Shown here: in pieces, positions 398 through 6,146 of the stretch
Numbering within the stretch: position 1 is the first letter of the stretch
Layout of the letters: each line of letters starts with the position of its first letter
Origin: a virus
Lineage: Duplodnaviria > Heunggongvirae > Uroviricota > Caudoviricetes
DNA length: 6,375 bases
Direction: 5' to 3' (one strand)
IMG/VR virus record: IMGVR_UViG_2728369593_000005
Coordinates: 1 to 6,375 of that record
Made by a program: the position numbers and the translations under genes
Notes under the pieces: generated by a model
The model's input: only the letters and a program-made list of their open reading frames with translations
Database searches by the model: none
Told to the model about the DNA's origin: nothing

Positions 398-600
398 ATG
401 AACCGTTATTTCACATGCTCGTTTTGTGGCGCAAACGAGCTGCAGGCAAAAAAATCATCGCCAAAGGCGGAAAAGATGAAGTTGCTATCTGCTCTGAGTG
501 CGTAGTCTTGTGTGTCGGGGCATTAATCAATATCAGCACAACTATTCGGTTCACACCAAATGAGAATGCGCCTTTAGATGCGCGGAAATCTGGAGGTTAA
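398..600 (+). CDS. Small ClpX-type C4 zinc-finger protein (about 67 aa if read through); reading frame interrupted by a -1 shift at an A7 tract (448-454), so either a pseudogene, a programmed frameshift or a sequence error
   Basis: ATG at 398 gives MNRYFTCSFCGANELQAKK and then runs out of frame to a stop at 503-505. The -1 frame (supplied ORF 415..600) continues ...KKIIAKGGKDEVAICSECVVLCVGAL.... Joined at the A run, the product has CSFCG...KIIAG...ICxECVxLC, which closely mirrors the ClpX N-terminal zinc-binding motif (CSFCGK...KLIAGP...YICDECVDLC) as I remember it. Neither half alone has all four Cys ligands. Confidence 0.6.
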
Positions 601-689
601 AGAACAAAATGAAAGTCCAGATTTTAAACAATAACTGTGAAGTCGTTTGGGCGTAAAACATGACCGCGCGTAGACCAAGGGAGGAAAAA

Positions 690-866
690 GTGGGAATAGT
701 TAGAAATCAAGCAGATATATTGAAAATCAGCTCTGAATTGCTTGGAGTTTTGAAAAGTGAGCTCACCGCACATGGCATCGAGCCCACTGACGAAAATTTA
801 AGTTGGGTTTTGTCGATTATTCAACAATCACTCAAGCCCAGCCTCAGCAAACTTTTTATCGAGTAG
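690..866 (+). CDS. Hypothetical small prophage protein (58 aa from GTG 690; alternative ATG at 660 gives 68 aa)
   Basis: Strong Shine-Dalgarno AAGGGAGG at 676-683, 6 nt before GTG 690. Product VGIVRNQADILKISSELLGVLKSELTAHGIEPTDENLSWVLSIIQQSLKPSLSKLFIE. Same orientation as the rest of the prophage operon. No homology recognised. Confidence 0.4.
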   Translation: MGIVRNQADILKISSELLGVLKSELTAHGIEPTDENLSWVLSIIQQSLKPSLSKLFIE

Positions 867-1019
867 TGCTTCGAACTTATCGTAAAGCTTGCTTATGTCG
901 TCTATCGGGTTTTCTGACGTACTGTAATTTTTATCTGATGTCATGGCAGCAGTCTGATATGCAGTGTGAGTCTTAACCGATAGTTGGAATAAATAAAGAA
1001 TTTTTTCTTCTTTGGTCAT
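828..1019 (-). CDS. Hypothetical small protein (63 aa), antisense to the surrounding operon and overlapping the 3' end of the 690..866 ORF by 39 nt
   Basis: Internal ATG (complement of 1017-1019) preceded by AAGGA with a 7-nt spacer; the supplied ORF 828..1061 has no Shine-Dalgarno at its first ATG. Product MTKEEKILYLFQLSVKTHTAYQTAAMTSDKNYSTSENPIDDISKLYDKFEALLDKKFAEAGLE. AT-rich segment. Confidence 0.35.
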   Translation of the reverse strand: MTKEEKILYLFQLSVKTHTAYQTAAMTSDKNYSTSENPIDDISKLYDKFEALLDKKFAEAGLE

Positions 1020-1099
1020 AACTATTTCCTTCTTGGCTATATGAAAACACCAAGATACCACCGAGCCTGAAGTGGTGAAAAGACAGGCACATAACAGCT

Positions 1100-1440
1100 A
1101 AGTATTTTCAACCAGAGAGAATCCTTAGCGTTGTGGTGAATGCGGCTCAGCGCACGCGGGTTAAGGTTGAGGCTGACAGTCGACCTTCTGTGGATACCCA
1201 CCCGCCTGGTGTGCAACCTTCGCCAGGCACCGGGAGGCACCCGGCACCACAACTTTATGCTGTGTGTAGTCTTGGCGGTACCAGCTTATACCCTTGCTTC
1301 CGGCTGGTACCGTCCTTTTTACAAAACAGAGAAGAGCATCACCGGACGACGGGCTCATAACCCAATCCATCCGGGCGGCAGTCACCGCAGGTGTTCTTCT
1401 CTGTTTTGTGGAGAAACTAACCGACCTTGCAGGGTCGATA
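1100..1440 (+). other. GC-rich, highly self-complementary, apparently non-coding element (candidate structured RNA or DNA site)
   Basis: Abrupt change from the AT-rich 600-1060 segment to a GC-rich one. ORFs are open in several frames on both strands but have Arg/Pro/Cys/His/Trp-rich, non-protein-like composition. Multiple stems are present, including GCCTGG 1203-1208 / CCAGGC 1223-1228, GGCACC three times at 1226-1248, and a perfect 10-bp stem at 1276-1312. Confidence 0.3.
1276..1320 (+). terminator. Strong hairpin (perfect 10-bp stem CGGTACCAGC/GCTGGTACCG, 17-nt loop) followed by T5; possible intrinsic terminator or RNA 3' end
   Basis: Arms at 1276-1285 and 1303-1312 are exact reverse complements; TCC then TTTTT at 1316-1320. 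Confidence 0.4.
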
Positions 1441-4170: not shown

Positions 4171-4371
4171 ATGCAACACGAACTACAGCCTGATTCACTG
4201 GTTGATTTGAAATTCATCATGGCTGATACTGGCTTCGGTAAGACCTTCATCTATGACCGGATTAAGTCCGGCGACCTGCCTAAAGCCAAAGTTATCCACG
4301 GACGAGCAAGATGGTTATATCGTGACCATTGTGAATTCAAAAATAAGCTCTTAAGCCGCGCCAATGGGTAA
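4171..4371 (+). CDS. torI: TorI: prophage excisionase (recombination directionality factor) and inhibitor of the TorR response regulator
   Basis: The 66-aa product MQHELQPDSLVDLKFIMADTGFGKTFIYDRIKSGDLPKAKVIHGRARWLYRDHCEFKNKLLSRANG matches my recollection of TorI and has the AlpA/Xis-type helix-turn-helix pattern. GGAG 9 nt before the ATG. Sits immediately inside attR, as expected for an excisionase. Confidence 0.88.
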   Translation: MQHELQPDSLVDLKFIMADTGFGKTFIYDRIKSGDLPKAKVIHGRARWLYRDHCEFKNKLLSRANG

Positions 4372-4420
4372 AATAGCGGGTAAAATATTTTTCACATCTA
4401 AAAAACACCATTCCAATCAA

Positions 4421-4459
4421 TCCCCTGCAACCTCAAGTAGATGTCTGCAGGGGACACCA
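4421..4459. other. Prophage attR: tRNA 3'-end core (CTGCAGGGGACACCA, 4445-4459) with a flanking 9-bp inverted repeat
   Basis: 4445-4459 is the T-stem 3' strand, acceptor 3' strand, discriminator and CCA of a tRNA, and is consistent with my recollection of the argW 3' end. TCCCCTGCA at 4421-4429 is the exact reverse complement of TGCAGGGGA at 4446-4454, as expected for integrase core-type sites around a crossover region. Confidence 0.6.
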
Positions 4460-4845
4460 GATACCCTTCAAACGATATCTACCTTCACCCCGTAAAAGAT
4501 AAGTTAGGCAGCACATTTGCCCTATCTACTCATTTTTCCTGCAACAGGTTGAAATCTCAACACGGTCAGAAAACGCTGATGACTAAACAGCCCTGGGCCG
4601 GGCGATGTAACCATCACACACAATCCTGATCGCGAAATATGGCGTGACTTGATACTTCACTCCACAATGCTTTCCTTGATGAATTCGCAGGCCCGTGATA
4701 CACGGGACAGGTCGCTGAATTACGACAATGCCCTGGAAATCAGCGAGCCGTGTATCCGGAGTACATTTGAGCGACTGTACCAGAACATGAATGAGGCGTT
4801 TGGATTAGGCGATTATTAGCAGGGCTAAGCATTTTGGTATTATTA

Positions 4846-4889
4846 TTTTCCGGTTGAGGGATATAGAGCTATCGACAACAACCGGAAAA
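4846..4889. terminator. Perfect 11-bp inverted repeat (TTTTCCGGTTG / CAACCGGAAAA, 22-nt loop) 10 nt downstream of the cscB stop; candidate cscB terminator
   Basis: Arms at 4846-4856 and 4879-4889 are exact reverse complements. The T/A runs are part of the stem rather than a free 3' U tract, so terminator function is uncertain. Confidence 0.35.
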
Positions 4890-4898
4890 AGTTTACGT

Positions 4899-6146
4899 TT
4901 ATATTGCTGAAGGTACTGGCGTTTCCATCACTATTTGCTCACGTTTTTTACTCAGGAAGAAAATGCCAAATAGCAACATCAGGCAGACAATACCCGAAAT
5001 TGCGAAAAAAACCGTCTGGTAGCCTGCGTGGTCAAAGAGTATCCCAGTCGGCGTTGAAAGCAGCACAATCCCCAACGAACTGGCAATTTGAAAACCAATC
5101 AGAAAGATCGTCGACGACAGGCGCTTATCAAAATTTGCCACGCTGTATTTGAAGACGGATATGACACAAAGTGGAACCTCAATGGCATGTAACAGCTTCA
5201 CTAATGAAATAATCCAGGGGTTAACGAATAGCGCGCAGGAAAGGATACGCAACGCCATAATCACAACACCGATAAGTAATGCATTTTTTGGCCCTACCCG
5301 ATTCACAAAGAAAGGAATAATCGCCATGCACAGCGCTTCGAGTACCACCTGGAATGAGTTGAGATAACCATACAGGCGCGTTCCTACATCGTGTGATTCG
5401 AATAAACCTGCATAAAAGACAGGAAAGAGTTGTTGATCAAAAATGTTATAGAAAGACCACGTCCCCACAATAAATATGACGAAAACCCAGAAGTTTCGAT
5501 CCTTGAAAACTGCGATAAAATCCTCTTTTTTTACCCCTCCCGCATCCGCCGCTATGCACTGGTGATCCTTATCTTTAAAACGCATGTTGATCATCATAAA
5601 TACAGCGCCAAATAGCGAGACCAACCAGAAGTTGATATGGGGACTGATACTAAAAAATATACCGGCAAAGAACGCGCCAATAGCATAGCCAAAAGATCCC
5701 CAGGCGCGCGCTGTTCCATATTCGAAATGAAAATTTCGCGCCATTTTTTCGGTGAAGCTGTCAAGCAAACCGCATCCCGCCAGATACCCCAGGCCAAAAA
5801 AGAGCGCCCCCAGAATTAGACCTGCAGAAAAATTGCTTTGCAGTAACGGTTCATAAACGTAAATCATAAACGGTCCGGTCAAGACCAGAATGAAACTCAT
5901 ACACCAGATGAGCGGTTTCTTCAGACCGAGTTTATCCTGAACGATGCCGTAGAACATCATAAATAGAATGCTGGTAAACTGGTTGACCGAATAAAGTGTA
6001 CCTAATTCCGTCCCTGTTAATCCTAGATGTCCTTTCAGCCAAATAGCGTATAATGACCACCACAGCGACCAGGAAATAAAAAAGAGAAATGAGTAACTGG
6101 ATGCAAAACGATAGTACGCATTTCTGAATGGAATATTCAGTGCCAT
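4899..6146 (-). CDS. cscB: Sucrose:H+ symporter CscB (oligosaccharide:H+ symporter family within the MFS, LacY-like; 415 aa)
   Basis: 415-aa hydrophobic multi-pass ORF. The sequence (MALNIPFRNAYYRFASSYSFLFF...) matches my recollection of E. coli CscB and is clearly LacY-like. It lies immediately downstream of a fructokinase gene on the same strand, as in the csc locus. Confidence 0.9.
   Translation of the reverse strand: MALNIPFRNAYYRFASSYSFLFFISWSLWWSLYAIWLKGHLGLTGTELGTLYSVNQFTSILFMMFYGIVQDKLGLKKPLIWCMSFILVLTGPFMIYVYEPLLQSNFSAGLILGALFFGLGYLAGCGLLDSFTEKMARNFHFEYGTARAWGSFGYAIGAFFAGIFFSISPHINFWLVSLFGAVFMMINMRFKDKDHQCIAADAGGVKKEDFIAVFKDRNFWVFVIFIVGTWSFYNIFDQQLFPVFYAGLFESHDVGTRLYGYLNSFQVVLEALCMAIIPFFVNRVGPKNALLIGVVIMALRILSCALFVNPWIISLVKLLHAIEVPLCVISVFKYSVANFDKRLSSTIFLIGFQIASSLGIVLLSTPTGILFDHAGYQTVFFAISGIVCLMLLFGIFFLSKKREQIVMETPVPSAI

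Follow-up and report, generated by a model that had tools for sequence, protein, structure and literature searches.

The locus examined here raises the question of whether a small gene that is read in two frames, joined at a run of adenines, depends on slippage for its expression, or is an ordinary gene that has lost one base. The gene lies at 398–600 of the window, by which we mean the whole 6,375-nt stretch of viral DNA that was analysed. We approached the question through the reading frames themselves, a census of the adenine tract in related sequences, the predicted protein and the genomic setting.

A zinc-finger gene read in two frames

Four features define the gene as sequenced:

386–392, + strand: Shine–Dalgarno-like AAGAGAG, purine-rich, 5 nt 5' of ATG398 (sequence inspection)
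398–505, + strand: upstream frame of the disrupted gene, from ATG398 through the CSFC knuckle to a TAG stop at 503–505 (translation, Pfam)
448–454, + strand: A7 homopolymer, one base short of the A8 found in intact alleles, where GCA AAA AAA ATC encodes A-K-K-I
455–600, + strand: downstream gene part, in the -1 frame relative to ATG398, reading IIAKGGKDEVAICSECVVLC... to a TAA stop at 598–600

The first-pass annotation had placed one CxxC pair (CSFCG) in the frame of ATG398 and the other (CSECVVLC) in the -1 frame, with the two frames meeting at seven A, and had predicted a peptide of only 35 aa if no slippage occurs. Translation of 398–505 and 415–600 confirms both statements. The ATG398 frame encodes MNRYFTCSFCGANELQAKKSSPKAEKMKLLSALSA followed by a stop, 35 aa in all, with the cysteine codons of the first knuckle at 416–418 and 425–427; 17 out-of-frame codons then lead to the TAG. 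The -1 frame (ORF 415–600) reads ...GKKIIAKGGKDEVAICSECVVLCVGALIN...SGG before its stop and also contains ...GKKIIAKGGKDEVAICSECVVLCVGALINISTTIRFTPNENAPLDARKSGG; the cysteine codons of the second knuckle are at 490–492 and 499–501, and a variable C-terminal tail follows. The junction is exactly the seven A at 448–454, which in the upstream frame read gcA AAA AAA, formally an X_XXY_YYZ heptamer in the 0 frame (447–454). The ATG equivalent to ATG398 is the start that PGAP chooses in intact alleles.

The two halves belong together. Against the Pfam family PF06689 (zf-C4_ClpX), for which the gathering threshold of 27 bits served as the cut-off, the fused 67-aa sequence scores 41.4 bits and the two genomic fragments 16.2 and 21.7 bits. 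Because only the fusion passes, one domain is truly split over two frames and the match is no chance resemblance. The four-cysteine CxxC...CxxC arrangement is absent from any single polypeptide encoded in the window, and is present after frame fusion and in A8 alleles.

Around the tract, the heptamer stands by itself. No downstream stimulatory structure above chance was found, with folding z-scores of 0.14 (455–500) and -0.46 (455–540) relative to shuffled sequences. The only element 3' of the tract is a 4-bp CGCC/GGCG hairpin, which had been described as weak and as lying 3 nt downstream; it is indeed weak, being no better than in shuffled sequences, and it starts 4 nt after the A7. Upstream, sequence inspection revealed no Shine–Dalgarno-like or GGAGG-like stimulator at about 10–14 nt.

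Tract length among homologues and the origin of the A7 copy

The first-pass annotation had reasoned that an eighth A would restore a single frame, and a count of adenines across related prophages shows that it does so in most copies. A 241-nt query over the gene, run against 5,426 complete E. coli genomes, found the locus in about 100 of them. With a 91-nt query, 99 records were returned from complete E. coli genomes: 25 are 100% identical to the window (A7), and 74 differ, falling in the 95–99% identity band, where all among the matches listed span one extra base (A8). The differing records listed carry an intact 204-nt CDS of 67 aa, annotated by PGAP as 'ClpX C4-type zinc finger protein' (WP_001083098.1). 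One A8 record read directly gives GCA AAA AAA ATC ATC GCC in a single frame, and codons 17–20 of the intact gene, GCA AAA AAA ATC, form the A8 run. A7 copies are either left unannotated by PGAP or have their -1 frame named 'hypothetical protein'. Metagenome and IMG/VR contigs were scanned with a pattern of fixed flanks and any 5–11 bases between them, and A8 was found in 6 of 7 metagenome contigs and 42 of 46 IMG/VR contigs (48/53 together), the remaining one and four being A7. No tract of another length (A6, A9) occurs among 69 sequences, including these contigs.

More distant relatives are uninterrupted as well. The 112-aa Salmonella homologue (P0013, present in >1,000 contigs) reads GCA AAA AAA ATT at this point, the homologue in Salmonella phage F1055 reads GCA AAA AAG CTC, and the 121-aa homologue of E. 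coli 97.3 and phage Phi06_2987 reads GCG ATA AAG ATC, each in a single frame. These diverged homologues all occupy the same genomic position as the gene. Over the 45-codon zinc-finger core, dN is 0.16–0.27 with synonymous sites near saturation, giving a dN/dS of 0.10–0.25 where it can be computed, and the fused protein matches phrog_5259, a single-frame phage family, from end to end. It is therefore the uninterrupted reading that is under purifying selection, and the A run is dispensable. Judging from these homologues, the gene is normally one uninterrupted 67-codon ORF, and the copy in the window is one base short (A7 for A8). We also considered A7 as the ancestral state and ruled it out, as the in-frame A8 is shared with Salmonella and the single-frame reading is under purifying selection.

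The A7 copies themselves fall into two groups when haplotypes are defined by the SNPs at 516, 517, 519, 548 and 570. Of the 25 A7 complete genomes, 22 carry 519A, and 21 of those also carry 570G; these 519A genomes come from independent laboratories and include ST167 isolates from several laboratories and one ST131 isolate. Among the metagenome and IMG/VR contigs, each of the five with A7 has the 519A/570G haplotype. Because the 519A haplotype is shared across independent collections, A7 is a real allele that has become established in one prophage lineage. The other A7 copies (NCTC9038, strain 135, UPEC_U013, RMDEC465 and the window) each occur once, on haplotypes whose other copies have A8. 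NCTC9038 is the one A7 copy in 30 on the commonest haplotype, with ECCHD184 as an A8 counterpart; siblings of strain 135, such as CE0007a, are A8; and the window is the single copy that combines 548G with A7, its sibling SOI121 and its nearest relatives (L065, L060) being A8. In all, at least six SNP haplotypes include an A7 copy, and several of these also have A8 siblings. Since tract state and SNP state occur in all four combinations within 125 bp, repeated loss or miscalling of an A is far more economical than repeated recombination. When sporadic A7 records were compared with their A8 siblings, the tract was the sole homopolymer indel in about 3.6 kb. The two other runs of seven or more in the window (5005 and 5526) sit within a 415-aa permease ORF that is intact, which gives no hint that homopolymers were miscalled in general.

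With a probability of roughly 0.57, we favour the reading that the window carries an ordinary frameshift allele: a genuine slippage deletion that has made a recent pseudogene with a trace leak. The deletion most likely arose in the cell and not in sequencing. In outline, this would be a small gene from the accessory set of a lambdoid prophage (SfV/e14/CPS-53-like), with a 67-codon ORF as its intact form, and replication slippage in the homopolymer would have removed one A to leave A7. Ribosomes starting at ATG398 would then make the 35-aa peptide with one of the two CxxC knuckles, from which the zinc domain could not form because the second knuckle is missing. Full-length protein would appear only through incidental -1 slippage on A_AAA_AAA or through stuttering of RNA polymerase. 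In E. coli reporters without a stimulator, average background frameshifting is 0.055%, frameshift-prone heptamers reach 2–10 times that, and A_AAA_AAA is among the motifs above 0.10% (PMC4066793). Given these values and the lack of a stimulator, the full-length yield from A7 is expected to be at most incidental and sub-percent. The leak might exceed this estimate, since C-AAA-AAA gave 25–60% frameshifting under T7 overexpression from pDEST17 in one study (PMC1851650). At the level of the family nothing here is new: this is a frameshifted copy of an annotated gene.

A homopolymer pseudogene and a sequencing error had both been named as alternatives from the start, and both fit the single-frame A8 majority. 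A sequencing or assembly artefact, in which base-calling dropped one A from a tract that is A8 in the organism and the 67-codon gene is really intact, is the less probable of the two but a serious competitor. It would explain why the window is an A7 singleton beside A8 relatives (SOI121, L065, L060), why sporadic A7 outside the 519A lineage appears only in long 'complete' assemblies (NCTC9038, UPEC_U013, RMDEC465 and strain 135) and in 0 of 48 non-519A metagenome and IMG/VR contigs, and why only contractions, the typical long-read error, are seen. Against it, A7 is demonstrably real in one widespread lineage, the sporadic records differ from their siblings at no other homopolymer over about 3.6 kb, and the other long homopolymers of the window lie within an intact ORF.

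That the tract is a phase-variable contingency switch, with changes between A8 and A7 turning the zinc-finger gene on or off among lysogens, we consider improbable. Two properties of a contingency locus are present: tract length is polymorphic among very close relatives, and the change recurs, with four or five separate origins of A7, at the least, on different haplotypes. Mononucleotide runs are also known indel hot spots, and AAAAAAA is under-represented in E. coli genes, with transcriptional slippage or a high indel rate as possible causes (PMC4066793). As for switching itself, the sequences show A7 and A8 as the sole two states, with neither A9 nor A6 among the 69 sequences, and the main A7 group is one clonal haplotype and not a mixture. 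The diverged homologues do without the run, so the family is independent of it. An 8-nt run is also short for high-rate switching in mismatch-repair-proficient E. coli.

A variant that we rate as more doubtful still is that A8 is a tuned weak point, such that lysogens losing an A switch off a decoy of the ClpX zinc-binding domain (ZBD) yet keep a trickle of it by -1 slippage. If this were true, the tract would be a heritable dimmer of a protein that alters ClpXP substrate choice at prophage induction.

The first-pass annotation had also offered programmed ribosomal or transcriptional slippage, which would make the A_AAA_AAA run the normal route to the 67-aa product, and this proposal fares worst. 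A canonical X_XXY_YYZ heptamer does lie in the 0 frame exactly at the junction, but the stimulator and the conserved two-frame layout of a programmed -1 site are absent, and neither the long run nor the conserved out-of-frame layout of programmed transcriptional slippage is present, the run being seven and the layout unconserved. We know of no case of programmed transcriptional slippage on a run of seven. In the documented bacterial examples of transcriptional slippage, the run is nine A or T long (PMC5009743). Despite the use of A_AAA_AAA by some IS elements (PMC4066793) and the high frameshifting at C-AAA-AAA in an overexpression vector (PMC1851650), the proposal is highly improbable, as one uninterrupted frame, with A8 or without any A run, is found in the majority of close copies and in every diverged homologue, no hairpin or pseudoknot above chance and no Shine–Dalgarno-like element at the usual distance accompany the heptamer, and translation in the 0 frame yields 35 aa and half of the zinc site. 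Overall, we are strongly inclined to regard the frameshift as not programmed. Where two frames meet at what looks like a textbook slippery heptamer, the cause can thus be a mere homopolymer deletion, and it is the census of homologues that settles the question.

The encoded protein and its probable early-left setting

The fused product had been taken for a free-standing zinc finger of the ClpX N-terminal type, and structural comparison agrees with the Pfam result in upholding this. The best sequence matches in the PDB are ClpX ZBD chains, 2DS5 (E = 2.6e-4) and 1OVX. An AlphaFold model of an intact homologue that is 97% identical (P0001) superposes on 2DS5, 2DS6 and 2DS8 with an rmsd of 1.4–1.7 Å and a TM-score of about 0.8 normalised to the target, and these are its top Foldseek matches in the PDB (probability 1.00). 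The mean pLDDT of the model is 69.9, with 76–87 over residues 1–40 and values below 50 from residue 53, where the tail is disordered. On the model, the intact protein is a free-standing ClpX-ZBD-like fold, a zinc ribbon followed by a helix.

SspB, RssB, trigger factor, lambda O and MuA all dock on ClpX through the ZBD, at a hydrophobic surface that includes F16 and I46 (PMC7804408). In the alignment, F9 of the phage protein falls on F16 of ClpX, and L38, A42 and L43 fall on L42, I46 and I47 of the docking patch; we infer that these four residues correspond to the ClpX hydrophobic docking patch (PMC7804408). As the patch residues align with the docking surface, it is plausible, and our best guess, that the intact protein would act as a decoy or partner for the surface of the ClpX ZBD on which SspB, RssB, lambda O and MuA dock. 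As the product of the first gene in a PL-like operon, it would be made soon after induction. Such a decoy could shield replication proteins and other ClpXP substrates. The searchable literature returned nothing relevant on phage-encoded ClpX-ZBD-like proteins, including prophage and anti-adaptor terms.

A profile search of 1.84 billion representative proteins found 592 relatives at E <= 1e-3. Because these are nearly all 50–300 aa and not ClpX-sized, free-standing ClpX-type fingers form a large family, which Pfam and PGAP already name without an assigned function. The longer members, of 121 aa (E. coli 97.3 and Phi06_2987; L016, 3098–3463) and 112 aa (Salmonella; L017, 3001–3339), have the same N-terminal ribbon and carry unrelated C-terminal extensions. 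Since they share the ribbon and differ in their extensions, the sequences suggest that the finger may be a module that delivers different tails.

Upstream of the gene, four further features set its context:

3–122, + strand: 3' end of a repressor gene of CI type (XRE family), co-oriented with the zinc-finger gene
141–165, + strand: intrinsic terminator after the repressor gene (z = -3.35)
176–212, + strand: two TTGC-N7-GCAA palindromes (176–190 and 198–212), overlapping a weak promoter-like TTGCAT-17-TATCTT
309–372, + strand (by context): conserved structured leader with helices P1 (309–314/367–372), P2 (317–319/325–327) and P3 (341–345/358–362)

The order in the window is the repressor 3' end, the terminator, the palindromes, the leader, the zinc-finger gene and small ORFs, with yfdP, yfdQ (DUF2303), yfdR and others further 3', and an oligosaccharide MFS permease on the opposite strand. 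In every locus examined, and with any immunity type, the zinc-finger gene lies 3' of a CI-type repressor gene on the same strand; an S24-peptidase domain was shown for the Salmonella repressor homologue only. The sibling locus L001 has the same palindrome motif in its cI/cro intergenic region, so 176–212 resembles OL/PL and the palindromes are probably operators of the upstream CI-type repressor. A simple promoter scan made no call at TTGCAT-17-TATCTT. Gene order and operator motifs together suggest that the zinc-finger gene opens an early-left (PL) operon of lambdoid type. The gene, with the segment 374–606, behaves as an accessory cassette: its flanks (300–373 and 607–650) are present in 1,419 E. 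coli records and the gene in about 100. In other prophages, unrelated small ORFs fill the same slot, for example SfV orf33.

The leader deserves attention in its own right. These 64 nt are more conserved than the coding sequence downstream, and are present in 1,419 E. coli records and in 53 phage records, including SfII, SfV, SfIV, ST64B, ZF40, YeP1, pAEv1818, mEp237 and T5-like Providencia phages. A scan with one genome per species gave 101 leader stretches in species representatives from dozens of Enterobacterales genera; the 80 of these that were listed are all from Enterobacterales except two, in records titled Chryseobacterium and Vagococcus. In ZF40, YeP1, SfV, pAEv1818 and prophage loci of E. 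coli and Salmonella, the leader lies 3' of the repressor gene and 5' of the first gene. It is upstream of kil in mEp237, and has no annotated repressor nearby in Providencia phage PSTCR5. In SfV-type immunity regions, it starts about 10–15 nt after a TTGACA-16-CATAAT promoter that overlaps operators.

An alignment of 106 distinct copies (A4; loci L075–L181) supports the structure. In the proposed helices, 93.5% of cells are paired, compared with 22–42% when the partners are slid, and 11 of the 14 base pairs are changed on both sides. The covariation score is 0.597 versus 0.155 in shuffles, and RNAalifold independently gives the same structure. Little or no variation is seen in the joining strands (CACGAAGUAGC) or in the P3 loop (GCRUAYGAA). 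The structure is visible only by comparative analysis, and single-sequence folding of 296–397 gives z = 0.27. Counts of G-U versus A-C did not discriminate the functional strand. An Rfam 15 scan of the whole window at E <= 1 found no family at 296–600, and the core sequence, an invariant 14-mer, had no relevant match in the searchable literature. By analogy with HK022 put RNA, the leader may be a put-like cis-acting RNA in early-left transcription; a BLAST of it against HK022 21000–29000 gave no match, in a stretch that may lack putL. Strongly covarying, spread over temperate phages and prophages of dozens of Enterobacterales genera and absent from Rfam 15, the leader may matter more than the frameshift.

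Several other elements were noted along the window. Two convergent small ORFs, 660–866 (+) and 828–1061 (-), overlap at their 3' ends and match phage families of unknown function (68 aa, phrog_15476, full length; 77 aa, phrog_2605). NCBIfam supplied no names for the neighbouring phage ORFs. At 1100–1323 (+) there is an Rfam match to STnc100 (43.4 bits against a gathering score of 47, E = 4e-7), with a DicF-like 3' hairpin at 1261–1315 (E = 0.94). In homologous E. coli loci, PGAP places a 'frameshifted hypothetical protein' just 5' of yfdP, near the equivalent of this segment, the overlap being approximate, and the relatives L008 and L014 differ near the same place by a 28-nt block of AGGCACC-like repeats. 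The segment probably encodes an sRNA, a broken gene being the less likely reading. Within 4171–6146, the prophage arm ends with a 66-aa ORF, presumably the TorI/AlpA-type excisionase of KplE1/CPS-53. About 500 bp beyond it is the minus-strand oligosaccharide MFS permease (TIGR00882, 594 bits), which we take to be the sucrose permease CscB. Among the complete E. coli genomes in the collection, none matches the whole window above about 98%.

Comparison with known systems

The closest known counterparts are WP_001083098.1 and phrog_5259. After frame fusion, the gene product shares 97% identity over 67 residues and occupies the same slot, directly after a CI-type repressor gene, in many E. coli prophages; the window copy differs in that it lacks one A of the A8 and is hence split. 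With the ClpX ZBD (PF06689; PDB 1OVX, 2DS5–2DS8), the phage protein shares the CxxC-N21-CxxC spacing class, at about 37% identity and with a 3-residue insertion (KGG) between the knuckles. Unlike ClpX, it has no AAA+ module and is a stand-alone protein of 67 aa with a disordered tail.

As for the tract, it resembles the -1 sites of dnaX and IS elements (A_AAA_AAG and A_AAA_AAA with stimulators) in being a slippery heptamer of lysine codons in the 0 frame. It differs from them in having neither a conserved stimulator nor a conserved two-frame layout, and in that its 0-frame product has no plausible function. A further parallel is offered by the 'savior' or compensated indels in homopolymers, such as the G-run of herpes simplex thymidine kinase (PMC5009743), where an inactivating indel in a mononucleotide run is likewise accompanied by possible traces of slippage product; unlike in those cases, nothing here indicates that the trace product matters or that the indel was selected.
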